Shown here one piece after another: positions 2,152-33,889 of a stretch of DNA of 36,951 nucleotides (the first letter of the stretch is position 1; every line of letters begins with the position of its first letter). The stretch lies in IMG/VR virus record IMGVR_UViG_3300010052_000161, positions 1 through 36,951 of that record. One strand, given 5' to 3'. The notes beneath the pieces were generated by a model. The model did no database searches, was not told the origin of the DNA, and was given only the letters and a program-made list of their open reading frames with translations. Source of the stretch: a virus. Its lineage: Duplodnaviria > Caudoviricetes. Made by a program: the position numbers and the translations under genes.

Positions 2152-2459
2152 GGGAACCGCAGCTCATGGGCGATCCGGGGGCCGACCTCGACCCCCGCAG
2201 CCGCCTCGTACGAAAGGACGCACCGCTGGTGATTCGACACGACTTCGACCACGCCGTGCGTGACGTGAACGATCTGGTTGTGGAACGGGTGGTAGTGAAA
2301 ACTGGTCCGGCGTCCTCCTTCGGCTCGGGATTCCCAGATCTCATAACCGTCCACCGAGAGAATGCGGCGGGTTTCTCCCCACGGCTTGCGGGTCCATCCG
2401 GCGGACTCCGCGCGGAGCGGCTCGGGGAGAAGCGGGAGAATGGAGAGGAGTCCGAACAT
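2076..2459 (-). CDS. Cupin-domain protein
   Basis: KPWG followed by TSFHYH and VEVGPRIAHEL match the two cupin motifs of mannose-6-phosphate-isomerase-type cupins. Confidence 0.7.
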   Translation of the reverse strand: MFGLLSILPLLPEPLRAESAGWTRKPWGETRRILSVDGYEIWESRAEGGRRTSFHYHPFHNQIVHVTHGVVEVVSNHQRCVLSYEAAAGVEVGPRIAHELRFPCDAHFVEIYRGRGPVMDSIERIYQ

Positions 2460-2554
2460 GTCTCGCCTCGCCGGGTTTGGTCCAGGGTCTGTCGCGTGAC
2501 CAGGTCGACGATCGTGTCACGGGCCGACGATCGCGTGACCCGGTCCACGGCGCG

Positions 2555-3190
2555 TCACCCGGCGAGCCGGTGGCGAAGCAGGTCCTCGGCGAAGTCCGCC
2601 AGGATCGACTCCATCTCCTTGACCCACTCGTCGGGAGTCGCGTCGGGAATCAGCGGACGGACACGATCGAAATCCTTCGCGTAGTCCCGGCCGAAGCCGA
2701 TCGTGACGTTCCGCTTCTGGGCGTTGACTCGGAAGATCTTGTCCGCGCCGCTGTAGCCGGGGACCACGGCGTTTCGCATCAGGCCGTCGTCGACGCCGAT
2801 CAGCGACCCGGGGGGTGTGTCGCGCTTGGACTGCCCGTAGAAGTTCTTGACGGGGAACTTGTTCCTGCCACGTCCCCTGTAGGTGGTGACGCCCTGTTTG
2901 ATGTCCCTCAGGGCTCCGAAGATCCCGGACGCGGCTTCGGACTTCTTCTTGAACGAGGGTCGCCAGCCCTTCTTTTCGGCCTTCACGATCTCGGTCGAGA
3001 GGGCGAGCTCCTTCCATTTCGCGCCGTCGACGCCGACGCCTCGATTGGAGAGAGCCTCGAAGTTCTCCTTCACCTCCGCCATCGCGTAGGTGCCGAGTTT
3101 CAGGAGGACATCACCGATGTTCTCGATGGTCAGGAATGGCTTCCCGATCGCCTGTCGAAGTTCAGTGGCGTCGACCTGGAACGCGAACAT
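2555..3190 (-). CDS. Phage virion morphogenesis / tail completion protein (Mu gpG-like)
   Basis: Start at MFAFQV (ATG 3190). The motifs VKENFE..GVDGAKWKELALST, LIGVDDGLMRNAV and VTIGFGRDYA resemble gpG-family signatures. Tail-module position. Confidence 0.65.
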   Translation of the reverse strand: MFAFQVDATELRQAIGKPFLTIENIGDVLLKLGTYAMAEVKENFEALSNRGVGVDGAKWKELALSTEIVKAEKKGWRPSFKKKSEAASGIFGALRDIKQGVTTYRGRGRNKFPVKNFYGQSKRDTPPGSLIGVDDGLMRNAVVPGYSGADKIFRVNAQKRNVTIGFGRDYAKDFDRVRPLIPDATPDEWVKEMESILADFAEDLLRHRLAG

Positions 3191-3290
3191 CGGAGGATGC
3201 CGTGCGTGAAGGAGATCTCGGGAGAGGCGCTGACCTCGAACCCGAACATCAGATCGTGTCGTAGGTGAACGAGATCTCGGGCGAGGCACT
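3173..3290. repeat. 59-bp imperfect tandem duplication spanning the tail-tube stop and next gene start
   Basis: 3173-3231 vs 3232-3290 align without gaps at 47/59 identity. Confidence 0.9.
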
Positions 3291-4193
3291 GTCCGGCTTC
3301 AGCACGTCGCACTGGATCTGGATCGTCGAGATGTCCTCCCGTGAGTGCGTGTCGGTCGGAGTGATGACCTGGGCGCGGGGCATGTCGATCGAGATCGTCG
3401 TGTAAGTGTCGGCCCCTGTCCCTTCGTGCTTCCCCTTCAGGAGCAGGTTGACGTCGAGCTCGGTCTCGGCGTCGAGAGCCCGGCGGACGACGTCGTACCC
3501 ATTCGTCTCCTTCAGGATCACGACCTGAAATGTCGTCTCCCGGCCGGTCTTCACCACGGCCGAGGGGCTCGTGTCCCCGAGATAGTGGATCTTGAGCGGC
3601 TGGTTGCGGGTGATCTGGAACGACTTCATCTCCTGGACCGCGGACCCGATCGTCAGGACGCAGTCCGCGAACTCGAAGTCGGTCAGGAGACCGAGGTCGT
3701 CGGCCACCGCCGTGTAGTCCCCGGAGGCCAGCACCGTTTCGGTCTTGCCTGTCGCCGTGGCGGACCAGTCGACCCGCCCCGAGTCCTCGGAGCCCTGCAG
3801 CGTGAACTGCGAGCACCGCATTCCCGCGTGACGCTTGCCGGCGTTGGCGATCCCGACTTCCGCCACCTCGATCCCGATGGAGGGGAGGTTGATCGCGGAT
3901 TCCCCGCCGAACACCCACTCGAGAAGCCACTGGGCTTTGCTCTTGGTGGTGCTCGCGTCGAACTGCGGGAACAGCGGTCCGCCGAGGGAGCCCTCCGGCC
4001 GCCCCCGGAACCGGCGGCCATGCTTGCGGCCGTACTGCCCGATCTGCGGAGTGTTGGTCCGGCGGTCCGTCATGAACTGGACGCCGTAGCTGTCGAGCGG
4101 CAGCAGGACGCGGGCCGGAGAGCCGGGGGTCGTCCCCCAGGTCGACTCCAGGTATGCGAAGTAGTAGTGCTGCTGCTGGATCGTGTAAGCCAT
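3249..4193 (-). CDS. Putative phage tail tube protein
   Basis: 314-aa beta-rich ORF. N-terminal ESTWGTTP and central GMRCSQFTLQG are typical of tube proteins. Follows the connector and terminator genes. Confidence 0.7.
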   Translation of the reverse strand: MAYTIQQQHYYFAYLESTWGTTPGSPARVLLPLDSYGVQFMTDRRTNTPQIGQYGRKHGRRFRGRPEGSLGGPLFPQFDASTTKSKAQWLLEWVFGGESAINLPSIGIEVAEVGIANAGKRHAGMRCSQFTLQGSEDSGRVDWSATATGKTETVLASGDYTAVADDLGLLTDFEFADCVLTIGSAVQEMKSFQITRNQPLKIHYLGDTSPSAVVKTGRETTFQVVILKETNGYDVVRRALDAETELDVNLLLKGKHEGTGADTYTTISIDMPRAQVITPTDTHSREDISTIQIQCDVLKPDSASPEISFTYDTI

Positions 4194-4275
4194 CTTGCTT
4201 CCTTGCGACTGGTTCTCGACGACAGGGTCTCGGTGACCGGGGCCCGGCGACCGGGTTTCGACGACATGGGCTCGA

Positions 4276-4797
4276 CTACAGGGTGTCGGCCCGTGGAGTG
4301 ATCTTCATCCGGAGGACGAGCTGGAAAATGTGCTGAGTGGCGTCGACCTTGTCTTTGTCCCGGCCGAGCTTCACGAACGAGATCTTGCTGGGCCCCTCGC
4401 CGACCGGGATCGCGTACCCGGTCCCCTCTTTGAGGTACGTGTCGATGTCGAGGTTCCCCTCCGGTCTCGACTGGTAAATCGCCTTGATGAGCTCGTCCCA
4501 GAGCGCCTCGCTCGTGTCGACGAATCGCCCCGGAGTCCAGTAGACGATGTCGAGGCTGTAGGGGTGGTCCTTCTGGAGGTTCGTCGCCCACTTCGGCGTG
4601 ACGGCCGAGGGCATGATGGCGATCGCCGGGAGGTCCGCGATCGACGTCGGGGATTCGGGACGGTGAGACGCCTCGGCCGGACGTCCCTCCTGGGGCTTCG
4701 ACTCGAAGCGGTACTTCTGGCGAAACACTTTGTCCAAGGCCGGCCAGTGGTCGATGGCGTCCCACACGGACCGGCGGGCCTGCGTCAGCCTGCTCAT
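4276..4797 (-). CDS. Putative tail terminator/completion protein
   Basis: 173 aa, contains DLPAIAIMP, has an ATGA overlap with the gp36-like gene and lies directly upstream of the tube. Confidence 0.55.
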   Translation of the reverse strand: MSRLTQARRSVWDAIDHWPALDKVFRQKYRFESKPQEGRPAEASHRPESPTSIADLPAIAIMPSAVTPKWATNLQKDHPYSLDIVYWTPGRFVDTSEALWDELIKAIYQSRPEGNLDIDTYLKEGTGYAIPVGEGPSKISFVKLGRDKDKVDATQHIFQLVLRMKITPRADTL

Positions 4798-5243
4798 TGT
4801 CGGGTCCTCGCCTGGTTGCAGAAGTAGGTCGGCCCCGAGATCCGCCGCCCGCTTCCGAGGACTCCACCACTCTCGAGAAGCGGTACCGCGATCGAACCCT
4901 GCTCGACCTGCTCGAGCCAGGTGATGGCCCGCTCGTAGTCATCCTGGATGACCTGCGAGGCGTCGGTCCCGCCGATGGTCATGACCCGGAAAGCGGCGAT
5001 GTCGACGCACCGGTCCGCCAGCCAGGCGTTCTCGGGGCGCGGAGTGATCGATCGAACCCGGCTGACGATCGCGGCGTCGATGAGGTTGTTCGCCCACTCG
5101 ATTCCGGCTTCGATCCAGCCTAGCTCCTTCTCGCCCCGCTCCCCGTCGGCGTTATCCCGGTCGGCGGCCCACGTGACGCTGTACTCGGTGAGGCGAGCCT
5201 CCACCGCGGCGACGCTCGCGTAGGTGTTCGATGCGGAGTACAT
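4794..5243 (-). CDS. Head-tail connector, Mu gp36/DUF1320-like
   Basis: YASVAAVEARL, ANNLIDAAI, CVDIAAFR and YERAITWLEQVEQG match the gp36-family pattern. Directly follows the capsid gene. Confidence 0.8.
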   Translation of the reverse strand: MYSASNTYASVAAVEARLTEYSVTWAADRDNADGERGEKELGWIEAGIEWANNLIDAAIVSRVRSITPRPENAWLADRCVDIAAFRVMTIGGTDASQVIQDDYERAITWLEQVEQGSIAVPLLESGGVLGSGRRISGPTYFCNQARTRQ

Positions 5244-5319
5244 GGGACCTCAAAGGAGAACCGGACGCCCCACCGTTGGGAGCAGGGCGTCCGGTCGTGG
5301 CGGCGAGACTTCTGGACGG

Positions 5320-5363
5320 CCAGGCAGAACCGCCAGGCAGAACGACCAGGCAGAACGACCAGG
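5320..5363. repeat. 13-bp tandem repeat (CCAGGCAGAACSR x3 plus partial)
   Basis: Read directly. Lies just downstream of the capsid stop and resembles the capsid 3' end (TCAGGCAAGAACGG). Confidence 0.85.
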
Positions 5364-5373
5364 TGAGGGCCGG

Positions 5374-6456
5374 TCAGGCAAGAACGGTGGCCTGCCAGAT
5401 CGAGTTGGGAGTGACGTAGTTCAGCCCGTAGCAGTCGCCGACGTAGGCTTCGATGCCGACCGGGTTGTGCGTGACCGTGGCATAGGCGAACTCGCCGTAG
5501 TTCTCCGCGAGGGAGGCCAGAGCCGCCAGCGGGTCGTCGTGCAGGTCGAGGGTCGTCGGGACAAGCACCTTGCCGTTGCTCGCCTGGACGAACCCCTCCG
5601 AGACCGGCGGAATGAAGATCAGTTTCTTCGGGTCCATCGTCGGGATGTTGGTCCCGGCCGAATCCTTGTAGCGGCCGGCGACGAAGTGCCAGTTCATCCC
5701 GAACAGGTTCTCGATGGTCTCTCCGCGAAGGACCTGCTCGGCATCCTGGTAGCTCGCCGTGACGTACGTCTGGAACTCGGTCAGAGCTCGCAGGTACTGC
5801 TTCATCGACGGATGGCAGAGGATCTCGGTCGGCGGCGCGACGTTCTCCGCCTCGGCCTGCAGCTTGACGTCCTCGATCAGCTTGTGGAGCCCGAAGCTCG
5901 CTGTGCTGATGTACGCGGAGACCAGGCCGTTGAGGTTCCCCTTGTGCGTGGCGGCGACGCCGAAGTCGATCGCCACCGAGTCGGCATCCCCCACAGCCTC
6001 CTTGATGACCCCGTTGGCGACGTCGTAGTACACGACACCGTCGGTGATGATCTTGGAGACCACGACTTCCTTCTGGATGGCGTGTCGGCGGGCGAACTTC
6101 GCCAGTTGGCGGCGGGTCTCGCGGGTCGCCTTCCGGTCGATCGTCTGGCTGTCCGGCTCCCGAATGGCGTCGATCAGCTCGGCACCGAACGGCATGGCGT
6201 TGAAGGTGTTGAACAGGACACCCCGGCGTTCGTCTGCCCCGACCTTATCCAGGACGCGGGCTTTGGCCCCCTTGTTGTTGAGCGGGGCGGGCCGCTGCTC
6301 GACGGAGTCCACGATCATCGTGAAGTCGTCGGTCTCCTCGTTCGAGGGGTTCACGAAGAACATGTCCGTGAACGGCGTCGGGATCGACGCATTCGTCTTT
6401 TCGCTCTCGTACATCGCCTTGAGAGAGCGGTAGTCGAGAAGGGTCTTGATCGACAT
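5374..6456 (-). CDS. Major capsid protein (HK97 fold, lambda gpE-like)
   Basis: 360 aa in the order protease-decoration-capsid-connector. IDFGVAATHK and C-terminal THNPVGIEAY..PNSIWQATVL are gpE-like. Confidence 0.8.
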   Translation of the reverse strand: MSIKTLLDYRSLKAMYESEKTNASIPTPFTDMFFVNPSNEETDDFTMIVDSVEQRPAPLNNKGAKARVLDKVGADERRGVLFNTFNAMPFGAELIDAIREPDSQTIDRKATRETRRQLAKFARRHAIQKEVVVSKIITDGVVYYDVANGVIKEAVGDADSVAIDFGVAATHKGNLNGLVSAYISTASFGLHKLIEDVKLQAEAENVAPPTEILCHPSMKQYLRALTEFQTYVTASYQDAEQVLRGETIENLFGMNWHFVAGRYKDSAGTNIPTMDPKKLIFIPPVSEGFVQASNGKVLVPTTLDLHDDPLAALASLAENYGEFAYATVTHNPVGIEAYVGDCYGLNYVTPNSIWQATVLA

Positions 6457-6635
6457 GAAAGGTGGGCCTCCCTGCCCGTGAAACGCTCATCCAGGAGCGA
6501 GTGTGTGAAGGGGAATCGAGTGCGGCGGCGGATTAGTCCAGTTCACGCAGGCGTGTTCGCGTTCGAGCGGGCGGATGCCAAGGACATCCCTGGGTTTGGA
6601 GTCCAAACGCCAGGAACACGGTCGAGCAGAATGCT

Positions 6636-7271
6636 CTAATCGGCCCCGAGCTGGACGTCCGTTTTGAGCTCGCCGAGGTAGTGGGTGACCCCGCTCGCCG
6701 TGATGGCGTCGTAGTCCCCGAGGAGCTGGCTCTTGACCACCTGCCCCTCGACGAGCAAACGGCCCGAGGCCTTGTCCACGTAATCGCGGGTCGCTTCGTC
6801 GTACAGGTCGACTTCCTCGTCCAGAACGCCGCGGGCGATCTCGGAGCCGGCGAGGGCCGACTCCGATCCGATCACCGCTTCGTTGTCGGCGTAGGTGATC
6901 GACCCCGAGAGGACGATCGTGTTCGTTCCGTAGTCGACGGACGACACGGTCAGGTTCGTGTCTGACCCGACCGAGATCTTGTCCCCGGCGCGGAAGAACG
7001 AGGCGTTGTCGACCGTCACCGAGGCGCTCGTCGCTCCGGCGTTCGTCTGGGTCCGCTTGCACGGCACCCACAGTTTCGAGGCGGTGATCCGGGCCATGAG
7101 GGTCCCGGGACGGAGGGTCCGTTCGTATCCGGTGTTCGTCCCGTCATAGGCATACGTCGCGTCGATCTGGATCGGCGGGGCGTAGTGCTCCGGACGGGCA
7201 GGAGCGAGCTTGAACTCGCGGAGACCCGCGACGCTGCGGGTGACCTTGCTGTCGACGATGGGCTGTGACAC
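6636..7271 (-). CDS. Head decoration protein with an inserted beta domain
   Basis: TLRPGTLMARITASKLWVP and ARGVLDEEVDL resemble decoration-protein motifs. Located between protease and capsid. Confidence 0.65.
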   Translation of the reverse strand: MSQPIVDSKVTRSVAGLREFKLAPARPEHYAPPIQIDATYAYDGTNTGYERTLRPGTLMARITASKLWVPCKRTQTNAGATSASVTVDNASFFRAGDKISVGSDTNLTVSSVDYGTNTIVLSGSITYADNEAVIGSESALAGSEIARGVLDEEVDLYDEATRDYVDKASGRLLVEGQVVKSQLLGDYDAITASGVTHYLGELKTDVQLGAD

Positions 7272-7338
7272 TGAGGAGGTCCTTGTCTGTCAGGTGACTC
7301 CGCGCGGAGCGGACGGTTTCAGAGGGAGATTCGGGGAC

Positions 7339-7385
7339 TGGCAGGTTCCGGAGTTGGCAGGGTTCGTGATTGGCAGGGTTCGGAT
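7339..7385. repeat. Approximately 16-bp tandem repeat with core TGGCAG(G)GTTC, three copies
   Basis: Copies at about 7339, 7355 and 7371, immediately downstream of the protease stop. Confidence 0.8.
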
Positions 7386-7387
7386 GC

Positions 7388-8536
7388 TCAGACCTTGGCG
7401 AGCTGGACGGCGATCTCGGCGTCGGAGTAGCCAGCGGTCTTGAGCTGCTTCTCGAGGTCCGTCTTGAAGTCGTCCCGCGGAGTCTCGGGAGCGGACGGGT
7501 CCGCCCTCCCCTTGAGCTTGGCCCCGAGAGCGATTCCCTTGGTGTTGAATCCGATGAGACAGGCGACGTCCCATTCGTTGGCCTTGCCGAGCTTCAGCAG
7601 GGCGTCTCGACTCGATGCGGGCGTTCCGCTTTCGATGAGGCTGGCGACGGCCTCGCCGAAGTTCCGCTCGGCGGCCTGGGCCTTAGCCCCCTGGAGAACG
7701 GCGAGCTGGGCGCCGAGGACGGCGCTCTGCTGTTCGAGACGTTTCAGGCGGGCCCCCATCGCGGCTCCCCCTTCCGGGGGAACCGGCGGGGCGCCGTCTT
7801 CCTCGTCCTGCGGCGTCTCTTCCTCGTCATCCTTTTGGGCGTCGTCCTTCTTGGCCCGCTTCTTGCCGCCGATCATGGAGACGGCGAATTTCAGAAGCAT
7901 CGGAAAGTTCGTTTCATCGACCCCCTCGGGGAGTGACAATCCCGGCTTCACGGCATCGAGAAGCTGATTGATCGCGTCAACGATCTCTTGGTCCAACTTG
8001 GTCCCCTCCTTGGGTAGTCCGGCGGCCAGGGCGGCAAATCGTTTCTGCCCCGGCATGGATGGTTGATCGACGATGGCGACGTGCAGCAGTTGAATCGGCC
8101 ACGTCCGGCCGCGCTGGTCCTGGGAGTTCCAGACCACATGCACGGAGACCGGCCAGTCTTCCTCAGTCAGTTCCTTCGCGACTTCGGGCGTCACGTAGGC
8201 CGCGGCCCAGAGCGTCTCCCCGTCGACCCACAAGTCCGACAGATAGGTGATGACCTGATCCGTCGAGGCGTGATGGGTCTCAGGGTCGGAGTGATCCCAC
8301 TGGAGGGGCCGAAGGATGCGGCCGACTTTCTGCCTGGCGAACGAATCCGCGATGGACGCGAGATCTTCCGCCGAGAACGTCGCCTCACCCTCCGACCACG
8401 TCCATGTCCCGACTCGCAGGACGTCCTTCACGATTCGGATTTTTCCAGGGCGATTCTCCCTGGCGGGCAAGCCCGGGGGCGAACCCGGGGGCAAGCCCTG
8501 TTGAGTGAATCGTCCGTTGGCAGAGATGATTGGCAT
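7388..8536 (-). CDS. Prohead protease/scaffold protein (Mu gp32/gpI-like)
   Basis: PLQWDH, VSV and LLHVAIVDQPSMPGQ form the protease domain, followed by an acidic and coiled-coil scaffold-like C-terminal half. Confidence 0.8.
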   Translation of the reverse strand: MPIISANGRFTQQGLPPGSPPGLPARENRPGKIRIVKDVLRVGTWTWSEGEATFSAEDLASIADSFARQKVGRILRPLQWDHSDPETHHASTDQVITYLSDLWVDGETLWAAAYVTPEVAKELTEEDWPVSVHVVWNSQDQRGRTWPIQLLHVAIVDQPSMPGQKRFAALAAGLPKEGTKLDQEIVDAINQLLDAVKPGLSLPEGVDETNFPMLLKFAVSMIGGKKRAKKDDAQKDDEEETPQDEEDGAPPVPPEGGAAMGARLKRLEQQSAVLGAQLAVLQGAKAQAAERNFGEAVASLIESGTPASSRDALLKLGKANEWDVACLIGFNTKGIALGAKLKGRADPSAPETPRDDFKTDLEKQLKTAGYSDAEIAVQLAKV

Positions 8537-8652
8537 GACATAAGGCCAGTCGCCACGGGGCCGAGAAGCGCGGTCAGCCCCTCAGTTCATGGAAGAGCGA
8601 CGCGAGCCCTGTCAAGACGGCGAAGATCATCCCTGAAGTTCACGGAGGAGCG

Positions 8653-9036
8653 ATGCAGACCTGCGAGTCAGCGGCAAAGACGATCGGCTGCTACCCGGAT
8701 ACGGCCCGCTGGCTCTGCCGGCGGTACTCGATCGGGGTCCTGGTGAACCGGTCCCGCCGTGAGCTGTCCGATGCGGACATTGAGGAGCTGCGGCGCCGGG
8801 TCGAGAACCCGCAGTCCCGCATCCGCTCCGCGCGGAGCGGGGATGGCAAGTTCTCCGCCCAGCCGGCGCCGGATCTCTCGGGGGCGATCGTCTCGCTCAG
8901 GGAAGCGGCGAGACGGTATCGGACGGACAAGGGGACGCTGGCGGCGGCGCTCGCGATCGTCAGAGCCGAGTGGCAATCGGCTTGGCCGGCCAGCCAAGAA
9001 GGGAGTTCCGCCAATGCGGGCATGAACGATCTGTGA
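8653..9036 (+). CDS. Small basic protein, possible HTH DNA-binding regulator, divergent from the head operon
   Basis: GGAGG Shine-Dalgarno. AAKTIGCYPDTARWLC and SLREAARRYRTDKGTL are HTH-like. Confidence 0.5.
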   Translation: MQTCESAAKTIGCYPDTARWLCRRYSIGVLVNRSRRELSDADIEELRRRVENPQSRIRSARSGDGKFSAQPAPDLSGAIVSLREAARRYRTDKGTLAAALAIVRAEWQSAWPASQEGSSANAGMNDL

Positions 9037-9085
9037 CATCTGCGTCATCTGTGGAGGCTTTCTGAAATCCACAGAGGGCACAGAT
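9029..9085. repeat. Nonamer-based (ATCTGYGWC) REP-like hairpin, copy 1
   Basis: ATCTGTGAC ATCTGCGTC ATCTGTGG...CCACAGA. A near-identical inverted copy lies at 28894-28931. Confidence 0.75.
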
Positions 9086-9156
9086 CCGGGCACGGGGCCG
9101 TTGTGTCACCGGCGGCCTGAAAGACTGATCATTCTTCCCGACGAACGGACGGCCCT

Positions 9157-9580
9157 TCAGGCCTCACCTTCGTCATGGGGCAGAGCAGACCAGGGCCGAT
9201 GGTCCTGGCCGGGGTCGCGGTGCTGCAGCCAGGTCGAGGGAGCGATGAGGATGGCCGGCGCGTCGGCGTCTCTCGGAAGCCGCCTGCCACGAATCATTCC
9301 CTGCACCGCAAGCATCCACACCCAGGACAAGGTCGTGTGTTCGACTCACTGTCCCGAGATGACGAGGCTCGGTTCGTCGAACTCGGTGATCTGCTGGTTC
9401 TACAGACGCGGGTTCTTGCACGGGTTGCACATCATCCGGTCGACGTTCTTTCCGGGGGCAATGTCGAGGCCCAGGTAGCGAAGCCACCTCCACGAGAGGG
9501 CGGTCGGTTCGTTGACGTCCTGGCTCCCGACATCGACGTTAGGCCCGAAGGGGGGCGTATTTGTCGAGAAGGCGGGCCAT
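9157..9580 (-). pseudogene. Degraded hypothetical gene
   Basis: ATG 9580 just after the sigma gene. A coding-like frame is recovered by a shift at the G6/C6 run (9550-9555) and is interrupted by TAG (9400) and TGA (9346). The in-register antisense frame is open. Confidence 0.35.
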
Positions 9581-9585
9581 GATCT

Positions 9586-10260
9586 TCAGGCTGTTGGCGT
9601 GCATTCCGCGACGTTTCCGCGAAGCCGCTTGAGGATCGAGGAGATGAGCCGGGAGACCTTCGACTCGCTGAGGTCGAGTTCTCGCCCGATCTCCCGTATC
9701 GTGAGGTCGACTTCGAAGTAGAGGCGGGCGACGGCCCTCTCCCGTTCTGTCAGTCCCCTCAGCATTTCTCCTGAGAGCGGGTCACACTCGGGGGCATGAT
9801 CCCGGTCCGGGATCGTCTCCTCGAACGAAAGCGAATCCTGCCGGCCATCCATCGCCGGGTCGGCCGTTGGCATCTGAACCATCTCGACCGCCGCCGATCC
9901 TGAATCTCGAAGACGCCGCCGAAGACGCCGCGGCACCCAGTCCGCTCCCCTGAGGGCATCGAGCATGGCCCCCGCGACGAGCCTGGCGGCGAACGCCGAG
10001 AACTTGACCCCCCGGGCGGGATCAAACCGCTCGACCGCCCGCATGAGGCCCACGGTCCCCTCGGCGGTCAGGCTGTGGATGTCCCACAACGGGTTCGGCG
10101 GAATCCTGGCGGAGAGGTTTCTCGCCAGGGCCCCCGCGATCCTCATGTGGTTTTCCACCAGGCGATTCCGGTTCTGGACCGTGCGGTTGCGGGCGTAGTT
10201 CACCCACAGCTGGGCTTCACTGAGTTGGGCTTCATTGAGTGGTGAGGTTGTCGCGTTCAT
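9586..10260 (-). CDS. Sigma-70 family sigma factor, FliA/WhiG-like (regions 2 and 4)
   Basis: RNRLVENH; EGTVGLMRAVERFDPARGVKFSAFA..GAMLDALRGADWVPR; region 4 LTIREIGRELDLSESKVSRL. Confidence 0.9.
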   Translation of the reverse strand: MNATTSPLNEAQLSEAQLWVNYARNRTVQNRNRLVENHMRIAGALARNLSARIPPNPLWDIHSLTAEGTVGLMRAVERFDPARGVKFSAFAARLVAGAMLDALRGADWVPRRLRRRLRDSGSAAVEMVQMPTADPAMDGRQDSLSFEETIPDRDHAPECDPLSGEMLRGLTERERAVARLYFEVDLTIREIGRELDLSESKVSRLISSILKRLRGNVAECTPTA

Positions 10261-10391
10261 ACAGGTCTGTCGGTACCGGCGGATTCGGTGGAGTGGCGAA
10301 TGATGGCCTCGGCTGGCACGCGCTCAAGAAGACTCTGGAATGCGACGTCCTCACGGGTCTCGCCCCTCTTGTTCATCCAGGTGATGGGGGC

Positions 10392-11456
10392 TTACGCAGG
10401 AATCTCGTGGTAGGAGATATCTCCGTCACAGCGTACGGACGCAAACAGCCCGTTGTACCCGTCTTGCTGAGGTGTCGTTGCCGCACAGTTCGTGGCACAC
10501 CCGATCGTGCATGCACTCGGATTCAGGAAGAATTGGTGCCAGAATCCTTCTGGGAGCCACTGCCATATCGCGCAGATGTTGTGGCCGCATGAGTCCTGCC
10601 CCGGGTCTCCAGAGGATCCATCTCCGTCGCTGGCTGGCCCTTCCGAAGATGTCACCTCGCTCGACGATCCGGAAGCGGACCATGACTCGGAATCGCTGAC
10701 ACTGTCGGAGTCGGAGCTAAAGTCGCTGGCCGATTCGCTTGAGGAACTGGATCCCCCAGAACTCGACTCTTCGCAGCTCGACGAGTTCTCCCTGGAGCTG
10801 CTGCTCGACTCTTCGGCGGAGGACGAGCTGGTTTCCTCGCTGCTGCTGGAGTCCTCACACTCCTCCAAGGAGGTTGTGATCGACACGGTCCCTTTGCAGC
10901 CCTCTTCTCGCTCCAGTTCTCCAGTCCAGTCAATCTCGACACCGAACTGGGATGCATAACTCGAAACGAGATGACTTGGGTTCAGGTAGAGGTGCGCACT
11001 GAATGTCCACCTCTTCGGAGATGAGGAGTAGTCCACGAAAAGAGACAAGGTCTTGGCCGACGCCCCCGAAGACTCTGGCTCAAGGGGATGATTCGAGAGC
11101 ACATAGTGAGGGCTTCCAAGGTCGCAACCGACGTTGTGCGTCAGGTTCCAGCTTCCGTTCATGAGGGCACAACCTCCGGTCATTCCGGAGATCGTGACTG
11201 TCACGCATTGCGGGCAGTTCGACTGCGAGCTCGACGAAGACTCTTCCGATTCGGAGCGACTACTCGAAGAACTGGAGCTCAACTCGTACGGCCAATCGAT
11301 ATTTCCAGCCGCCAGCATCGGCGGACCCCCTACCTGGGAGTCCACGGTCAGAGGAGATCTCCTCCAGAGACGCTTGATGTCGACGTCGTGCTGGAGCATG
11401 AGCTGCTGCTCCAGGCGTTTCTGCACGCCGGACGGAAGATGCCTCAGGAAATACAT
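10392..11456 (-). CDS. Ser-rich, Cys-rich hypothetical protein
   Basis: 354-aa ORF with two poly-Ser/Glu tracts separating Cys-containing domains. More AT-rich codon usage than its neighbours. Confidence 0.6.
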   Translation of the reverse strand: MYFLRHLPSGVQKRLEQQLMLQHDVDIKRLWRRSPLTVDSQVGGPPMLAAGNIDWPYELSSSSSSSRSESEESSSSSQSNCPQCVTVTISGMTGGCALMNGSWNLTHNVGCDLGSPHYVLSNHPLEPESSGASAKTLSLFVDYSSSPKRWTFSAHLYLNPSHLVSSYASQFGVEIDWTGELEREEGCKGTVSITTSLEECEDSSSSEETSSSSAEESSSSSRENSSSCEESSSGGSSSSSESASDFSSDSDSVSDSESWSASGSSSEVTSSEGPASDGDGSSGDPGQDSCGHNICAIWQWLPEGFWHQFFLNPSACTIGCATNCAATTPQQDGYNGLFASVRCDGDISYHEIPA

Positions 11457-11586
11457 TGCTGGTCCCTCGTTCCGCGCGGAGCGGCGGGCCTCTGAGCAGA
11501 AAGCTGACCAGCGAGGACCGCTCTGTTGTCAGCCGAGTCCGTTGGCTCTGCCGGTCCCGGAGATTCGCCGACAGGACCGCTCCGAG

Positions 11587-12834
11587 TCAGGCCGACTGGC
11601 CCATCGTGGACGTCGCTGCGGCGTTGGCCAGAACCATTGCCTTCAGGCGGTCGGCGACGTCCTTTGCCACGGGGACGCCGACGCTGTCGAGCATCGCGGC
11701 GATGTCCACCGCTCCCGACGTCAGAACCGGCGAGAGCTTCGGCGTCGTGAGCCAGGAACGGACGAGCTCGATCGCCAGGTCATCCTTCCGCTGGGTGAGC
11801 GGCGTGAAGTTCCACTGGATCGCCCCAACGCCATTCAGGGCCCGGGCCTTATCGATGACGTTCTTCTGGTACGACTCCCCGATCTGGGAGAGCAGGTCCT
11901 CGACCGTCGCCAGCAGGATCAGCATCTGCTGCGTCACGAGGGCGAACGACCCGACCGCGTCCCCTTCGATGACCGTCTTGGGCGGGATGCCGGCGGCGAG
12001 CAGGATCTCGGATCCGAGCTTGTCCGTGATCGCCAGGAGCGGGGAGCCGTCCTTCGCGGGGACCGGGTCCTTCGTGATCTTGTACTTCGGCCGGGTCTCG
12101 GTGCCGATCTGTTCCGATCCGGGATCCATGCACAGCACGTCTCCGGCCTCCGCACTCCGCGCGGAGCCGGCGAACTCTGCCCACACGTCGACCATCCGGC
12201 CGTCCCGCTCCTCGAACTGCGGACCCTCGAACGTCAGGTCCCCGAGGGCGTACTTGCGGAGGAAGGTCTTGCGCCGCTGCAGGGCATCCCGGCGTTCCTC
12301 CCACACGGCGTGCATCGCTCCGAGGTAGCGGGAACGGCCATGCGGCTCGAGGGGCTTCTCGTCGAGCGACAGCCACCAGGAGTACAGCGGCCCGAGTTCG
12401 ACCGGATCCTCCCCGCTGTCCCGAAACGCGATCCCGTCGAATTCCCCGTCTTCTCCCAGGCGGAGTTCGGTTTTTTCATAGGGGAGCTCGTCCAGGCGGG
12501 CGACGACGTCGAGGCCGGCGCCAGGGAGGGCGGCCCAGACGACCTCCTGGGCGACGCGGCCGTAAGCGAAGCACTCTGTAAACTGCTTGAGGTGCCTCCA
12601 CCAGATCGTCTCGAGGGTCGCCGCGAGGAGCTTTGTGCGGACATCCTGCGACGGCGTCGTCACCGTCACCTGGGCGGTCTTGACGTTCGCGGTCAGGACC
12701 CGATCGGCCAGCACGACGTACGGATCCCGCCGCATGTCGTCGACCATCATGGCAATGTTCTTTTCCCGCTCCGCGAGCGACGCCAGATACGGCCCGGACT
12801 TCGCTCCGTAGGAGACTTTTCCGACCATCGTCAT
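11587..12834 (-). CDS. Phage portal protein (Mu gp29/DUF935-like)
   Basis: DMRRDPYV, CFAYGRVAQEVVW, PHGRSRY and GSFALV match DUF935-type portal motifs. AGGAG Shine-Dalgarno before ATG 12834. Lies downstream of terL. Confidence 0.8.
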   Translation of the reverse strand: MTMVGKVSYGAKSGPYLASLAEREKNIAMMVDDMRRDPYVVLADRVLTANVKTAQVTVTTPSQDVRTKLLAATLETIWWRHLKQFTECFAYGRVAQEVVWAALPGAGLDVVARLDELPYEKTELRLGEDGEFDGIAFRDSGEDPVELGPLYSWWLSLDEKPLEPHGRSRYLGAMHAVWEERRDALQRRKTFLRKYALGDLTFEGPQFEERDGRMVDVWAEFAGSARSAEAGDVLCMDPGSEQIGTETRPKYKITKDPVPAKDGSPLLAITDKLGSEILLAAGIPPKTVIEGDAVGSFALVTQQMLILLATVEDLLSQIGESYQKNVIDKARALNGVGAIQWNFTPLTQRKDDLAIELVRSWLTTPKLSPVLTSGAVDIAAMLDSVGVPVAKDVADRLKAMVLANAAATSTMGQSA

Positions 12835-12994
12835 CCCCAACTCCTAGACCATTCCGGTCTTTCGTGTGCCCGCGATCGCGTTTCGCTCGTCGAAGCGCGA
12901 GTGCCCGCGAGGCGGGACTGGCAAACCCCAACGGCTCGAGGACCCGCCGCTCCATGGGAGCGACGGCTGCGGAGCTCTCAACCGCCGTGACAAC

Positions 12995-13621
12995 CTACGT
13001 CAAAGCCGCTCGGATCTCCTCTTCCACGCAGGCGATCTCCCCTTTGGCCGCCTCGATCCGCTCCTGGCACTCCTTCCGCTTTGCGAGGAGCTGGTCCTTC
13101 TGGACCCCCGCAAAGGTGGCCGCGTTCTTCACGTCGCTGAGGAGCCGGTTTCTGGTGTAGATTCGCGGGTCGAGGCCGGGGGCGAACCCGAGCTCGACGA
13201 GGCCGTCGTCGATCCTCTTCCGCACGGGAGGGGCTGCCTCCAGCGCCTTCTGGTAGCGGGCCTCCGCCTCGGGGAGGAGCCGTTCGAGATACGGAAGCGT
13301 CGCTTCGTGGACTTCGAGGAACGCGCGGGCCATCCGCAGGCGGGCCTGTCGTTTCGCCAGCGGATTCGCCAGCTTGGCGGTCGCGAGGTCCTGGGACCGG
13401 AGCGTCGCGGCGTCTCGATCGACGAGGTCGACGACGCCGGCGTGGGCGCGCCGCTTGAGCTGGATGGCGGGAAGGAACTCCTTGGCCGCATCGCCGGCCC
13501 AGTCGTACTCGGGGACTTCCACAAGCGAGCGGCAGTCGGCCGCCACTCGGGAGGACGAGAGTTCCCGCCGTGGTTCGTGCCGGACCTGGGGAAGGACGGG
13601 GCCTGAGAGAACTGTGTTCAC
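12995..13621 (-). CDS. Hypothetical coiled-coil protein
   Basis: Helical, high-GC3 ORF. GTG 13621 with AGGA Shine-Dalgarno chosen as start. Confidence 0.6.
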   Translation of the reverse strand: MNTVLSGPVLPQVRHEPRRELSSSRVAADCRSLVEVPEYDWAGDAAKEFLPAIQLKRRAHAGVVDLVDRDAATLRSQDLATAKLANPLAKRQARLRMARAFLEVHEATLPYLERLLPEAEARYQKALEAAPPVRKRIDDGLVELGFAPGLDPRIYTRNRLLSDVKNAATFAGVQKDQLLAKRKECQERIEAAKGEIACVEEEIRAALT

Positions 13622-13918
13622 GGATTTTCCTGTTCTGGAGTGAGACGAAAGGACCGCTCCGCGCGGAGTGGTCAAAGACCAGCGGTTCTCCGAGGGCGCG
13701 TCGGGACCGGTATCCCGCCGACTCCCGCCTCTCAGAGGGTCTATCTGTTCAAGCCACCCGGAGCCGTCGATCGCCGTCGCCTGGAAATGACAAAGCCCCA
13801 CGGACTACCAGCTTGCCCGGCGCGCGAGTCCGCCGATCTCTTCCGGCCTGAACGGATGGCCCTTGGCCCGGAAGTTCCAATGCGATGGCGGAGACCGAAC
13901 GTCATGACGATCCGTCGC

Positions 13919-21035: not shown

Positions 21036-21059
21036 GCTCACTCCAGTGGAATTCAAAAC

Positions 21060-21152: not shown

Positions 21153-21686
21153 TCAATGAGCCGTGATCTTCGAGGCCGCGTTACGGCAGGCACGAGCCAT
21201 CTCTCTGGCGCCGGTCGCCAGGGTCTTGGCGTCATAGCGATCCTCGCCGTCCGGCGTTCCGCCTGCGTGCCCGAAGACATACGCGTCGAACCCGTCCGGT
21301 CCGCCGTAGGCGTCGCCTCGAGCCTTGGCGGTTCGCTCGGCGAACCACTTCGCGGCGTCCCCGCTCTCTTCGAATGAGTCTGCCCGGTTCGAGAACTCCT
21401 CCAGGCTGTCGGCCCAGTTGAGCAGGTAGCGGGCGTGTGACTTCGTGACGGCGTCCGTCGGAGCGTCTTCCACCGTCACGATCGGATAGGCCGGCGGGGC
21501 GACCGCTCCGCGCGGAGTGAAGCGGACCAACAGGACGATCCCCGCCGCGAGGCTGGCGGCGACAACGAGAGCCACCCCGATCGTCCTCCACGAGAGACCT
21601 CCCGCGGCCGCTCCACGCTTGACCGGAGTCTTGCGTGGAGCGGCCTTCCCGGAAGGTTTGCGGGGGAGTGTCTTACGCCTTGCCAA
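21153..21686 (-). CDS. Single-pass membrane protein with periplasmic helical domain
   Basis: Basic N-terminus, TM segment IGVALVVAASLAAGIVLLV, AAGGAGG plus TTG start. Confidence 0.7.
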   Translation of the reverse strand: MARRKTLPRKPSGKAAPRKTPVKRGAAAGGLSWRTIGVALVVAASLAAGIVLLVRFTPRGAVAPPAYPIVTVEDAPTDAVTKSHARYLLNWADSLEEFSNRADSFEESGDAAKWFAERTAKARGDAYGGPDGFDAYVFGHAGGTPDGEDRYDAKTLATGAREMARACRNAASKITAH

Positions 21687-23174: not shown

Positions 23175-24137
23175 TCAGAAAGGCAAGGCGGTGGGTGGCG
23201 CTGCTGGCGGCTTTGGGCCAGCAGTGGAATGGACGCCCCATTCGGACGGACGTTGCTGGCGCTGGCAATTCCTACCGACTACGCGAATGCACCGCAGGCA
23301 GTCGAGCCACACGCCCGATCGCAGCGCCTCTCGAAAATCCTTGCATCCCTCGGGTGTGAAACACCACCCGACTCCGAGACGCTCGGCGACTCGCTCGGCT
23401 CCCGCCTTCCCCGGCCAGCAGTGAGCGCACCCGCTGCACTCGGCGGGACACGAATCGAGCACGCCTCGTTTGTCAGGGCGCTCATCGCGCTCACCCACCA
23501 CGAGGACCGGTCTGGACTCCGCGCGGAGTCGGAGCATCCCGGCGATGGTTTCGGATCCTCCGCAGCTCGAGGGACGACCGATCGCGGCGATTCCGGCCGT
23601 GGCCGCCGCCGCGACGTCGCTCCCTCCCTCGACGATCAGGATGACTCCGGGGGCCTTCCACCAGTCGGGCAGGCAGAAGACCCCGGCGTTGCTGGTCCCC
23701 GGATATGTTCGTTTCTCTCCGTCATCCAGATACCTCCGCACGATTCCGATGATCTGCCCGTCCGCCCGGCGGGAGGGGAACGATGCCCACTCCCGTCCGT
23801 TCCAGTCGCACCCCCAGCCGACCCGCAGGGCCTCCAGGCTGGCGACGCTCACGCCCAGTGTCTCGGCGAGATCCTCGCGGGTTGCCGGGGCCGTCTCGTG
23901 CTCGTACAGCCGCCGGGCCAGGGCCGCGCACTCGGGCTGGGGGATGACCGCTTTCGGTGCGGCTTCGACTGCCGGAAGGGGATCGTCCAGGTCGTGCAGC
24001 CATCCCCCCGCCGGCCGCTCCCGGTCGGAGGGCACCCGCATGCAGAGCGCCACTTCGCCATCCGCCGTGAAGCAACACCAGTCCCGCTTCCGGCAAATCG
24101 GGCATGGCGATCGATCCGTGACCCGAATCCAAGACAT
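23175..24137 (-). CDS. DNA primase-like protein (Zn finger plus TOPRIM)
   Basis: N-terminal CPIC..DWC..C, TOPRIM ILIVEGGSD and VVGERD, and KDFRE. Confidence 0.85.
   Translation of the reverse strand: MSWIRVTDRSPCPICRKRDWCCFTADGEVALCMRVPSDRERPAGGWLHDLDDPLPAVEAAPKAVIPQPECAALARRLYEHETAPATREDLAETLGVSVASLEALRVGWGCDWNGREWASFPSRRADGQIIGIVRRYLDDGEKRTYPGTSNAGVFCLPDWWKAPGVILIVEGGSDVAAAATAGIAAIGRPSSCGGSETIAGMLRLRAESRPVLVVGERDERPDKRGVLDSCPAECSGCAHCWPGKAGAERVAERLGVGWCFTPEGCKDFREALRSGVWLDCLRCIRVVGRNCQRQQRPSEWGVHSTAGPKPPAAPPTALPF
23199..23226. repeat. CTGCTGG-N-CCAGCAG REP-like hairpin within the primase 3' end
   Basis: Its reverse complement closely matches 15929-15957. Confidence 0.7.
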
Positions 24138-26346: not shown

Positions 26347-27465
26347 TCAGTCCTTCAGCGCCCCTTTCTCGCGGTCATCCAGCCGGGCGTGCTGCAGCGG
26401 CGTGATGAACCCCGCTCCCTTGCACAGCTTGCAGTTCGGGACTGCGTCGCAGCGGGGGCACTCCGTGTAGTACTCCGCCCCCCTGAACTGGTTCTGGATC
26501 GTCTTGAATCCCCGCCCCGCCGCGGCGACGTCGAGGTACTCCCACCCCGGCTTCCCCGCGAGGCCGTCGACTTCAGAGATCAGCATCCCGAGACGCCGCA
26601 CCCACTCCGCCACCGCCGCCGTGTTGTGCTTGCCGCGGAGTCCGGGCGGGACCGGGCGGTTCAGCTTGTCGACCAGCTTGCCACGCGTCTGGGCCTCCCC
26701 CGGCGCGGCCTCCGCCGGCCTGGTCTCTGCTGGCCTGGTCTCCGGCAGCGCCTCCGCGATCTCCTCGACGGACGTCCCGACGTCCCGTTTCGGAAGCGGC
26801 TCGCAGTTCGGGTTCGTCCTGTTCGGGTTCGCCTTGGCGTCCATCCGCTCGACGCGGGCGGTCTCCGCAGCCGGAGTCGGTTCGCTCGGCTTTTCGCGGG
26901 GGCGGTCGCTCGGTGTCTCGCGGCGGAGGGACTGCGGGACGTGGATGTCCGGCGTTCCCGCCTTCTTGAGCCGGACGAGCTGGCGGTAGATGAACCCGCG
27001 GGAGAGCCCCGTTTTCCCTTCGATCCCCTCCTTGCCGTACAGCTGCAGCGTCGGGAACATCGCCCGGGCTTTCATGAACACCCGCTGGCAGGTCGCGGCG
27101 TCCCGCTTGAGGCCGTGGTTGGTGTTCGCCTTGAGGCTGTATTCCTTGGCGGCGAACAGCGGATCCTCGACGACGTGCACCTCGCACAGCCACGCGTCGC
27201 GCCCCGCCCGCTCCAGGGACTCGTATCGGTGGAACCCCTCCGCCAGGTAATACAGGTCCGTCAGGCCGCCGCGGGTGAAGACGACCAGCGGCGGGAAGAG
27301 ATCGTTGCGAAGGGGGGCTCCCTTCTGCTGCTGCTCCTCATCCGACTCCGTCACGAGCTCGGTGAGCTGATGGATGTGCTCCTCGCTCATCTGCTCGCGG
27401 CACTGGAAGGCGAGGCACTCCTCCCACGGGATCTGCTCCAACGGAACCAGTCTGACTTCCGACAT
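26347..27465 (-). CDS. ParB N-terminal-like protein with HTH and C-terminal Cys cluster
   Basis: FPPLVVF..YYLAEGFHRYES, ANTNHGL, HTH-like IEGKTGLSRGFIYR and CPRC..CKLC. Start at MSEVRL. Confidence 0.75.
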   Translation of the reverse strand: MSEVRLVPLEQIPWEECLAFQCREQMSEEHIHQLTELVTESDEEQQQKGAPLRNDLFPPLVVFTRGGLTDLYYLAEGFHRYESLERAGRDAWLCEVHVVEDPLFAAKEYSLKANTNHGLKRDAATCQRVFMKARAMFPTLQLYGKEGIEGKTGLSRGFIYRQLVRLKKAGTPDIHVPQSLRRETPSDRPREKPSEPTPAAETARVERMDAKANPNRTNPNCEPLPKRDVGTSVEEIAEALPETRPAETRPAEAAPGEAQTRGKLVDKLNRPVPPGLRGKHNTAAVAEWVRRLGMLISEVDGLAGKPGWEYLDVAAAGRGFKTIQNQFRGAEYYTECPRCDAVPNCKLCKGAGFITPLQHARLDDREKGALKD

Positions 27466-27542
27466 CGCCTCGACTCCCTTTGGCCGCGTGGTGCGGCCGT
27501 TGATCGTTTTCTTCCACGGCGTCCCAGAGGGGAGAAGTGGGG

Positions 27543-32538: not shown

Positions 32539-32620
32539 CCGTGGCCTCTCCCAACGAAAAGGGGGCGGCACCAAAGGCACGCCCCCGAGAAGCATCGCTT
32601 CCCCGTTAGGTCTGTCGGGC

Positions 32621-32710
32621 TAGTGGGTCGTCGGTCGTGGGTGGCCGGACAGGAATTTCCGGCGTCTTGGCTTTTTGGCTACCAACGACCCACTGCCAAC
32701 TACCCACTAC
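32621..32710. repeat. Dispersed intergenic element copy C
   Basis: Imperfect inverted repeat AGTGGGTCGTCGGT...ACCAACGACCCACT. Overlaps the stop of the HExxH gene. Confidence 0.75.
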
Positions 32711-33047
32711 TCTCGGCTTCCTTTCGATAACCGAGCCGAGTGAGAATCCGGGCGGTGTCACGGGAGATCTGGGCGACCCACTCTTCCGAGCGGTGCCAGT
32801 CGGCCGCGTGAAGGACTTCGTGGAGGATGATCTCCAGCTCCTTCTCGCCCGTCAGACCGGGGTCGATGACGATCTCCCGGTTGGTCATGTCGGACGGAGA
32901 GGCGACGGGGGCCCCGGACTCGACGCCGTGGGCCACGCCGTAGCACTCGCGGACGCGGCCCCGGCGAAACTTCCAGAGCTTCCCGAAGATCTTGACCGTC
33001 TTCACCAAGGGCGAACTCCCCGACCTCTTCGCGGTTCTCTCCGCCAA
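32700..33047 (-). CDS. Small HExxH zinc metallopeptidase-like protein (ImmA/IrrE-like fold)
   Basis: EIVIDPGL..ELEIILHEVLHA..SEEWV. Confidence 0.75.
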   Translation of the reverse strand: MAERTAKRSGSSPLVKTVKIFGKLWKFRRGRVRECYGVAHGVESGAPVASPSDMTNREIVIDPGLTGEKELEIILHEVLHAADWHRSEEWVAQISRDTARILTRLGYRKEAESSG

Positions 33048-33889
33048 GAGGGAAGAGGTTTCCGATCAGTCGCCGGAGTCGTTCAGTCCCGCTTGCGCGA
33101 CATCGCCATGGATCGCCGCTCCGCGCGGACGGGAACCGCCACTCCGCGCGGAGTCCTACGCCGGGGGCCGAGTGTCACCGCTCGTGCTCTGACGAACAGG
33201 GCCGTTCTTCTGTCAGCAGCGCCACCCGACGCGCGGGCAGGAATCGCGACTCCGCGCGGAGTCCGGCACGCTCGCCGCGATGGCCGCTCGCCCCCTCGGC
33301 CGGGAGACGCCTCGCCGGCGAGTCCCCATCGATTGGCCTACAACCCTCCCCTTGGGCCGCTCCCTGCCTCATCCCTCCACCCGGCAGAACTGTTGATTCT
33401 ACTGGTAGGCCGACGCTGAGCTGTTCAGTGTCCTGCCGTCACGGAGCCGACGTTGGCTTGGTTGCTCACCAGCTCGAAAGCGGGTGCCCACGGCGATTGT
33501 TGGCGAGTCGTTTCCACAACGCACGGCCGTGGCCGTGACTCCCGACCCCGGGGAACTCCCCCGCCGAGGTAGACCGCCTCACCCGTGCCGCCTCGGCGTT
33601 GAAATCGGCCCCCCTCACGGGAGAGGACCTCGCCTAGCCGGAGCATCCAAACCCCAGGCGGAAGTCAGTCGATGGCCGAGGGATTTCCGTCTCTTGCGTC
33701 AGCCGATTTCGCCCCGCGACCGGTCGGCGCTGACGAGGCTCCGCGCGGAGTCAGCAGGCGATGGCTCAAGCCGTCTGGCGGGGGGACCGGCTGGCCTTTC
33801 AGGCCGGAAGACAACGACGGAGTTTTTGTGATACTTTGTGTGTCAATCCGGGTTCGGCTCCCAGAGATGAGGGGACGGAAAGCCCTGAC

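Follow-up and report, generated by a model that had tools for sequence, protein, structure and literature searches.

Several families of short iterated sites offer precedents for the word described here. The sites read by Noc, SlmA and MatP are palindromes of 12 to 16 bp, read by dimers and present in tens of copies per chromosome, both within genes and outside them; they serve chromosome management, are conserved across whole groups and are positionally biased along the chromosome. The DUS/USS uptake sequences of Neisseria and Pasteurellaceae are not palindromes. They are lineage-specific, occur as perfect copies at permissive places in core genes, are described as absent from recently acquired genes and have been explained by selection or molecular drive (PMC2397512). 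HIP1, or GCGATCGC, is the highly iterated palindrome of cyanobacteria, for which alternates are described (PMC5861425, PMC4390886). On elements themselves, KorB, a ParB-family protein of the IncP plasmid RK2, reads about a dozen dispersed palindromes, OB (PMC11790492), and the stoperators of cluster A mycobacteriophages are asymmetric, transcription-oriented and phage-limited repressor sites located at promoters and in short intergenic gaps (PMC9283540).

The window analyzed here, a stretch of 36,951 nucleotides, is a prophage in which the self-complementary 12-mer CTCCGCGCGGAG is dispersed. Like HIP1, this word is a perfect palindrome over-represented genome-wide (in the planctomycete genome G007), in three frames and in non-coding DNA. 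It differs from HIP1 in its core, which is not among the alternates described in those reports, in its length (12-16 bp against 8 bp), in its density (28 per Mb in G007 and 325 per Mb in the window alone, against 300-2700 per Mb) and in its distribution, being confined to one known species, and denser in the prophage, where HIP1 occupies most of a phylum (PMC5861425, PMC4390886). No methyltransferase link of the kind described for HIP1 was found in a search for the C5 family (PF00145) in the incomplete G007 genome. Like DUS/USS, the word occurs as perfect, lineage-specific copies at permissive places in core genes, but it is densest in a prophage (PMC2397512). As with KorB, a ParB-family gene accompanies about a dozen palindromes; however, the sites extend beyond the element, none lies near the parB-like gene, no ParA/IncC was found and the sequence is unrelated to OB (PMC11790492). 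The sites recall stoperators in being many, of repressor size and partly at gene junctions, more so in an unrelated phage (G001), but they are symmetric, occur throughout G007 and in 7 of 12 window copies are intragenic (PMC9283540). Unlike REP/RAYT elements, they have independent flanks and no longer conserved unit beyond about three flank bases; unlike the Noc, SlmA and MatP sites, they are missing from a near relative of G007, G011.

Counts and context in the prophage

All 14 positions given in the initial annotation, 12 exact copies and two with one mismatch, were recovered (Table 1). Its estimate was about 0.02 copies expected by chance; Markov models of orders 2 to 6 give 0.007-0.06 exact copies when the motif is masked, and none of 100 dinucleotide shuffles reached 14 copies (mean 0.72, largest 4). 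Our own codon-model gene caller likewise reproduced seven genic copies in all three frames (3, 2 and 2 when presence by frame is counted) and placed the other five exact copies between genes. Positions 14-36 bp upstream of starts, claimed for three copies, stood for two of them, at 7298 (26 bp) and 11470 (13 bp), both before minus-strand starts; for the 13657 copy, a distance of about 36 bp requires translation to begin at an in-frame GTG near 13621, whereas our caller chose 13522. Spacing in the window is not regular (CV 0.98, p 0.63). The integrase island (33977-36951) has no copy but, at 3 kb, is too short for this to show whether recently acquired DNA lacks the word.

The 12 exact copies all fit the 16-mer SR-CTCCGCGCGGAG-YS, the left flank being S-R and the right flank Y-S. 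The flanks had been thought to extend the palindrome often; instead, the two sides pair independently, the first flank bases being A..C or G..T in 6 of 12 sites. Two gene labels also failed to reappear: the 'cupin' at 2076-2459 has no Pfam match at E 0.05, nor do the 'envelope proteins' at 19605-20207 and 21153-21686 at E 0.001. The portal-like gene matches Portal_Mu at E 0.002, below cut-off. Rfam matches in the window are limited to tRNA. No excision joint was seen in contigs of one DNA run, which cover the right 20 kb in 30 of 30 bins, and the sequencing runs listed include no RNA run with the window.

Table 1. Sites of the word and selected genes in the window (positions in nucleotides; strand of genes in brackets).
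Feature	Positions	Core start	Context	Frame
GA-core-CG	2404..2419	2406	inside ORF 2076-2459 (-)	LRAE
GA-core-CG	7296..7313	7298 (core 7298-7309)	intergenic, upstream of head-decoration gene
CG-core-CG	8824..8839	8826	inside ORF 8653-9036 (+)	SARS
One-mismatch core	11470..11481	11470	upstream of ORF 10392-11456 (-)
CA-core-CC	12153..12168	12155	inside portal-like gene 11587-12834 (-)	SARS
CG-core-TG	13655..13670	13657	intergenic, between terminase and next gene
CG-core-CG	18856..18871	18858	inside 53-aa ORF 18777-18938 (-)	LRAE
GA-core-TC	20106..20121	20108	inside ORF 19605-20207 (-)	TPRG
CG-core-TG	21504..21519	21506	inside ORF ending at 21153 (-)	TPRG
GA-core-TC	23515..23530	23517	inside primase-like gene (-; phrog_239)	LRAE
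One-mismatch core	33119..33130	33119	23 bp left of 33142 copy
CA-core-TC	33140..33155	33142	intergenic
GA-core-TC	33248..33263	33250	intergenic by own caller
GG-core-TC	33737..33752	33739	intergenic, ~140 bp upstream of tRNA-Leu
Genes shared with the G007 prophage	3249..15370 (-)		tail tube, head-tail adaptor, capsid, decoration, protease, sigma factor, portal-like, terminase
Small protein	8653..9036 (+)		probable HTH_17/MerR-type fold; tentative second candidate for the reader
ParB-like protein	26347..27465 (-)		N-terminal ParB domain, HTH-like stretch, C-terminal CxxC pairs

Copies across a planctomycete genome and their origin

Among 398 family genomes, the closest relative of the window prophage was found in G007 (capsid 83% identical); the other five capsid matches are 28-38% identical and go with no copy of the word. 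G007, from which all our genome-wide evidence comes, served as a stand-in for the window's own host; it is incomplete and fragmented into over 900 short contigs (numbered to C958). Summed over its contigs, the 12-mer occurs 140 times, against an expectation of 1.7-2.8 and one copy of the reversed control, and 116 of these copies fit the 16-mer. The 16-mer occurs 0-3 times in each of the other 397 family genomes, G011 included, and 0-5 times in a phylum sample of 300 genomes. Of the 398 genomes, one has both a close prophage and the word; G011 lacks both.

Because these 140 copies lie throughout G007, housekeeping genes included, the word is not this virus's private, element-specific operator, and the host-wide iterated palindrome proposed in the initial annotation is supported. 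The comparison of densities suggested there, made with G007, confirmed the genome-wide excess but not an equal density: the window prophage is about 12 times denser, so that simple absorption of a host word, although the word is host-wide in G007, is too simple an account. Pieces of the G007 prophage hold two sites in 10 kb (p 0.03 against the genome density).

Sites in G007 lie in or beside nusA/prs, carA, dapB, metH, uvrB, flgC and the hopene cyclase gene, and no functional theme appeared among 72 proteins scanned near sites. Out of 85 sites examined, 51 are intergenic, against 20% of the DNA (about 6-fold enrichment, p 1e-15); the genic ones fall 19, 11 and 4 in the three frames, presence being counted. 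Intergenic contexts follow length (16 divergent, 20 tandem and 3 convergent, with 14.9, 20.7 and 3.3 expected), and neither promoter preference nor a fixed distance to starts was seen among G007 sites. The copies obey the same flank rule as those of the window: A..T, mixed and G..C pairs number 77, 46 and 12, where independence expects 74, 52 and 9 (p 0.19). The 12-bp core is fixed, central CG included (present in 135 of 143), and the sites sit where sequence constraint is low. No common sequence extends past about three bases outside the core; a few copies lie within longer repeated units (C6, C160).

The two prophages have the region 3249..15370 of the window in common, at 67-81% nucleotide identity, as well as a second repeat family. 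Three window sites could be aligned with the G007 prophage, and two of them persist there, in flanks about 75% identical: the 12155 core is exact and the 7298 core has one mismatch. The 13657 site, where the region aligns poorly, is not kept.

For the chromosomal sites, G011 provides an outgroup: its genome is complete, its UvrB is 96% identical to that of G007, the word is at chance level in it, and the housekeeping genes around G007 sites find their nearest orthologues there. None of six in-gene sites is kept in G011. Four of them show clustered substitutions with changed amino acids and no insertion, 18 of 48 motif bases differing where flanks predict 8.6 (p 0.001); the other two comparisons, gapped near the site, were excluded from this count. 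Small indels occur in these two and at the G007 terminase site. The flgC and uvrB sites fall at variable protein positions, and the Arg at the flgC motif appears in none of 29 other orthologues. Intergenic sites align with G011 too poorly to separate substitution from insertion in six comparisons at five sites; a seventh matched a paralogue.

Wider searches returned the word in an unrelated phage. G001 carries 19 copies of the core, dense, at gene junctions and evenly spaced (CV 0.60, p 0.012). No protein is common to the window and G001, G002 or G004. No host genome carrying the word was found for G001, whose endolysin, DnaB and RecT have only distant matches; tetranucleotide signatures fail to separate planctomycetes from controls. 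Viral contigs contain relatives of the terminase at 80 loci (977 kb, 41-57% identity), all free of the word; for the ParB-like protein, the capsid and the helicase, no relatives were found there. A metagenome scan with a 17-mer gave 91 stretches with one copy apiece, none clearly kin. Scanned with one 16-mer, a genome collection gave 120 stretches, drawn from 36 of its 64 parts; of the 80 titles listed, that of G007 alone came up twice. Forty-five of the scanned genomes were counted whole, leaving out 74: G007 has 140 copies, four others have 1-5 (12-mer) and forty have 1-2 (16-mer). The word did not appear in titles and abstract openings of the papers listed on genome-wide palindromic repeats of Planctomycetes; the exact 12-mer had one match in the literature text searched, on Drosophila satellites.

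Candidate readers and competing explanations

We tentatively favor, with confidence somewhat short of even, the view that the word, common to the prophage and the G007 chromosome, is a 16-bp sequence to which a dimeric protein binds, and that this protein is most likely host-encoded. A two-fold symmetric protein would read double-stranded DNA in an all-or-none manner, and selection or transfer bias may have brought perfect sites to fixation recently, once the G007 and G011 lineages had parted. Such sites would have a structural or self-marking role rather than one in promoter control: they would organize the DNA of the cell or label it as its own, which may also be what HIP1, uptake sequences or nucleoid-occlusion sites do. 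The prophage may have accumulated about ten times more sites because the bound state aids its persistence or its treatment as self. Counting against a host reader, no candidate host protein was identified, an unrelated phage holds 19 copies, and the higher prophage density and single-genome co-occurrence fit a phage-encoded reader equally well.

A reader encoded by the prophage family is possible, if on the unlikely side: a small terminase or packaging factor, the ParB-like protein or the 8653 HTH protein, whose network would have spread from phage to chromosome, for example through more frequent packaging and transduction of site-bearing DNA. The density of the prophage and the two sites that predate the split of the two prophages argue for it, as does G001, which shows that a phage can hold the core densely at gene junctions; the joint presence of word and close prophage does so too, but reflects one lineage and is hence not independent. 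Moreover, the window and G001 lack a common protein, and host sites would be expected to titrate a repressor. To our knowledge, many pac sites within one phage are unusual, which counts against a packaging factor. Pac-like chromosomal sites strongly raise P22 transduction and may be selected, but those described are oriented and nine in number, whereas the word is symmetric and in over 100 copies (PMC11260489). It is rather improbable that the chromosome owes more than 100 copies of the 16-bp site to the resident prophage's own DNA-recognition protein, written while UvrB diverged by 4% and over codons of uvrB, metH and flgC; this would be a phage-driven, uptake-sequence-like drive through biased packaging or transduction, or the work of a domesticated phage nucleoid protein.

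Nothing links the word to the ParB-like gene. The assignment itself, from phrog_1033 (E 4e-7) and a precomputed PF02195 match, is weak, our own Pfam scans being blank. The nearest sites are 2.8 and 5.7 kb away, and an AT-richer, control-region-like stretch at 28.2-28.7 kb holds none. No ParA/IncC partner was found among 48 window ORFs scanned, in a record that may not span the whole prophage. The protein was not found in G007, G011, G417, G211, G210 or 301 genomes of the order, a result that carries little information; the incomplete G007 has no ParB-family match, which is equally uninformative, against six in G011. The KorB/parS-like network that the initial annotation proposed this protein might read is improbable and unsupported: the sites also occur outside the element, none lies near the gene and no ParA was found. 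The small protein at 8653-9036 has feature scores of 0.87-0.90, a structure TM under 0.5 and no Pfam match.

It is unlikely that methylation-linked repair bias writes the word without a dedicated binding protein. Methyltransferase targets are usually shorter than 12 fixed plus 4 biased bases, which counts against this model. Sites arising by substitution in all frames would suit it, as would the depletion of the central GCGC in the window (0.48) and G007 (0.63), but the depletion is just as strong in G011 (0.62), where the word is missing. In addition, half-sites and shorter cores are not in excess once full sites are masked, and the incomplete G007 has no C5 methyltransferase match (PF00145), although such a model, Elhai's, is described for HIP1 (PMC4390886).

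A REP- or MITE-like hairpin remnant, or an RNA hairpin hiding a GGAG ribosome-binding site, is more doubtful still. Enrichment between genes, GGAG on both strands, the few copies in longer units and the small indels point that way; however, the flanks show no covariation and share nothing beyond about three bases outside the core, four in-gene sites arose without indel, Rfam finds only tRNA and the distance to starts is not fixed. Least probable of all is an element-specific KorB/parS- or stoperator-like network of the ParB-like protein, with G007 copies unrelated or a binning artefact: the gene is present, starts follow closely downstream of three sites and 12-14 dispersed sites match the scale of KorB's 12 (PMC11790492), but the copies of G007, which already contradict this account if its contigs are correctly binned, are spread over many contigs whose housekeeping genes are nearest to those of G011 and obey the window's flank rule, both the AT-richer stretch and the 2.8 kb around parB are free of sites, no ParA was found, and stoperators are asymmetric and oriented, unlike the word (PMC9283540).

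The word behaves like a young, lineage-restricted mark of the HIP1 or uptake-sequence type. HIP1 and uptake sequences are ancient, which makes the start of genome-wide words hard to see. Here the word is abundant in G007 and at chance level in G011, and therefore the gained sites are readable against an outgroup. That it is densest in a prophage allows a test of whether phages exploit a self-mark of their host or impose a mark of their own.

A 16-bp palindromic word in a probable prophage

The initial annotation had counted 12 exact and 2 one-mismatch copies of the palindromic core CTCCGCGCGGAG in the window, and we reproduced both counts and positions; the word is a real feature. Markov models of order 2-6 predict 0.007-0.06 exact copies, against the 12 observed, and none of 100 shuffles of the window reached 14 copies (shuffle mean 0.72). 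Each of the 12 exact copies has S-R on its left and Y-S on its right, so the unit is a 16-mer. The intragenic copies reported in all three reading frames were confirmed: our own codon-model gene caller places 7 of the 12 exact copies in genes and 5 between them.

The window is catalogued as a virus record and its proteins are found on a 249,593-base contig, so that it is likely a prophage cut out of a host contig. Among the minus-strand genes are those for a tail tube, a Mu gp36-like adaptor, capsid, protease, sigma factor, terminase, primase, helicase and a ParB-like protein. The tape-measure-like frame (see table) is well separated from the tail genes, which occupy the opposite end of the record; this order suggests rearrangement or permutation.

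Coordinates of features in the window
Feature	Position	Remarks
Sigma-70-type factor	9586-10260	Clear; within head operon
WD40-like beta-propeller protein; papain-family peptidase	16053-17222, 20217-21083	Among phage genes
ParB-like gene	26347-27465 (-)	PHROG match and precomputed Pfam match
Inverted-repeat element, two copies	27535-27620, 32617-32715	Tandem AGTGGGT-like arms; many copies in G007; REP- or MITE-like, distinct from the palindrome
ORF	27615-28232	Sigma-like by eye; no family match
ORF	30622-32538	Long, acidic, coiled-coil-like; by eye resembles a tape measure start; no family match
tRNA-Leu(TAA)	33890-33975	Followed by integrase, small ORF and 456-aa ORF (no Pfam family)
Right-end segment	33890-36951	About 60% GC, lower than the rest; motif-free; appearance of a separate island inserted at tRNA-Leu(TAA)

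Spread and origin of sites in a planctomycete genome

Among 398 genomes of one family, the capsid nearest to that of the window (83%) belongs to G007, a fragmented and incomplete Planctomycetota MAG with a sister prophage; five other matches reach 28-38%. Head and packaging genes of the two are 67-81% identical in nucleotide sequence, and a second repeat family, common in G007, has two copies in the window. These motif-independent resemblances make the window's host likely kin of G007, which serves here as a stand-in for the host chromosome. One G007 contig (C608) also carries an apparent 3'-half duplicate of the window's tRNA-Leu, as at an attachment site.

The 12-mer occurs 140 times in the 5 Mb of G007, compared with once for the reversed control and 1.7-2.8 expected copies (estimated on a 286-kb sample), which supports the earlier suggestion of a host-wide iterated palindrome. 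There are 116 copies of the 16-mer, versus 0-3 in each of 397 further genomes from the same family, which we take to be the Planctomycetaceae given the membership of G008, Planctomicrobium piriforme, and 0-5 in each of 300 other genomes of the phylum. A scan of a genome collection for one 16-mer gave at least 120 stretches, these coming from 36 of its 64 parts, and G007 was the sole organism to occur twice among the 80 titles listed. The word is confined to one known species.

G007 sites lie in or adjoin nusA/prs, carA, dapB, metH, uvrB, flgC, asparagine synthases and hopene cyclase, and no shared function emerged from the 72 proteins scanned. In the 85 sites examined of the 140, 51 are intergenic, against 20% of the DNA (P = 1e-15). 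The 39 assignable intergenic sites divide into 16 divergent, 20 tandem and 3 convergent gaps, where gap length predicts 14.9, 20.7 and 3.3, and distances to starts range from 20 to more than 900 bases; this pattern is not that of a promoter-proximal regulon. On three contigs (C160, C6 and C679), two or three sites lie 130-350 bases apart inside longer degenerate repeated units.

First-flank pairs (77 A..T, 46 mixed, 12 G..C) fit independent halves (P = 0.19), which also argues against a selected hairpin, in which matched pairs would be favored. At the center of the word, CG is fixed (135 of 143 sites), and no half-site excess is left in G007 after masking full sites. Such an anatomy would be expected if a protein with two-fold symmetry reads the sites on double-stranded DNA.

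The outgroup G011, a single 8.4-Mb contig whose UvrB is 96% identical to that of G007, holds 8 copies of the 12-mer in its whole genome; the 1.2 Mb examined contained no exact copy and 23 near-matches. Four G007 sites (flgC, uvrB, asparagine synthase and metH) align to it gap-free and arose by substitution in place: 18 of 48 bases differ versus 8.6 expected from the flanks (P = 0.001), a count that omits two further in-gene comparisons with gaps near the site. Intergenic comparisons were too diverged for use. The arginine encoded by the flgC motif occurs in none of 29 other orthologues, so the G007 state is derived. Between the window and the G007 prophage, the site at 12155 is kept exactly, that at 7298 with one mismatch, and that at 13657 is not kept; a site in the G007 prophage terminase, located at a one-codon indel, has no counterpart in the window's terminase.

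Candidate readers and rival explanations

We rank first, tentatively, a host-encoded structural or self-marking protein as reader of the word. A prophage-encoded reader comes second and is possible but less probable; it accounts for the co-occurrence of the word with a close prophage and for the phage excess. This excess was seen twice relative to the G007 stand-in, once weakly: the window holds 325 copies per Mb versus 28 in G007, a baseline that is not the window's true host (Poisson P = 1e-9), and G007's own prophage pieces hold 2 copies in 10 kb (P = 0.03). P22 pac-like sites offer a partial precedent (PMC11260489). The ParB-like protein, proposed by the initial annotation, is a possible but unsupported reader: no ParA was found among window proteins, its gene lies 2.8 and 5.7 kb from the closest sites, and sites extend beyond the element. 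Relatives of the protein were not located on DNA, and a ParB-family search of the fragmented, incomplete G007 gave no match.

Three other explanations fit less well than a host or prophage reader: writing of the word by methylation-linked repair is improbable, a REP/MITE or RNA hairpin slightly more so, and an element-only operator is the least probable.

Our literature search on the exact word and on planctomycete palindromes, supplements aside, returned nothing on this word. HIP1 and uptake sequences are, like the word, written through genes and spacers; the word differs from HIP1 in sequence and abundance and from DUS/USS in being densest in acquired DNA, and belongs to neither class, nor to KorB networks, stoperators or REPs.

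The core also recurs 19 times exactly in a 90.8-kb phage record (G001), where 33 of 38 half-sites are GA, many copies sit at gene junctions and the spacing is even (CV 0.60, P = 0.012). Another record (G004) represents this phage across 12 kb, and a third (G002) contains 3 copies within 20 kb; no protein is common to the window and any of the three. The G001 copies may reflect convergence, since GC-rich 12-bp palindromes are limited in number, or G001 may be a second phage that encounters a similar reader. G001 also carries a 12.7-kb ORF and genes for GroES, nicotinamide phosphoribosyltransferase and an RNA-binding protein, and almost wholly avoids several 6-bp palindromes.

The reader would probably act as a dimer and recognize its site in an all-or-none manner, and the sites would have been fixed recently through selection or transfer bias.
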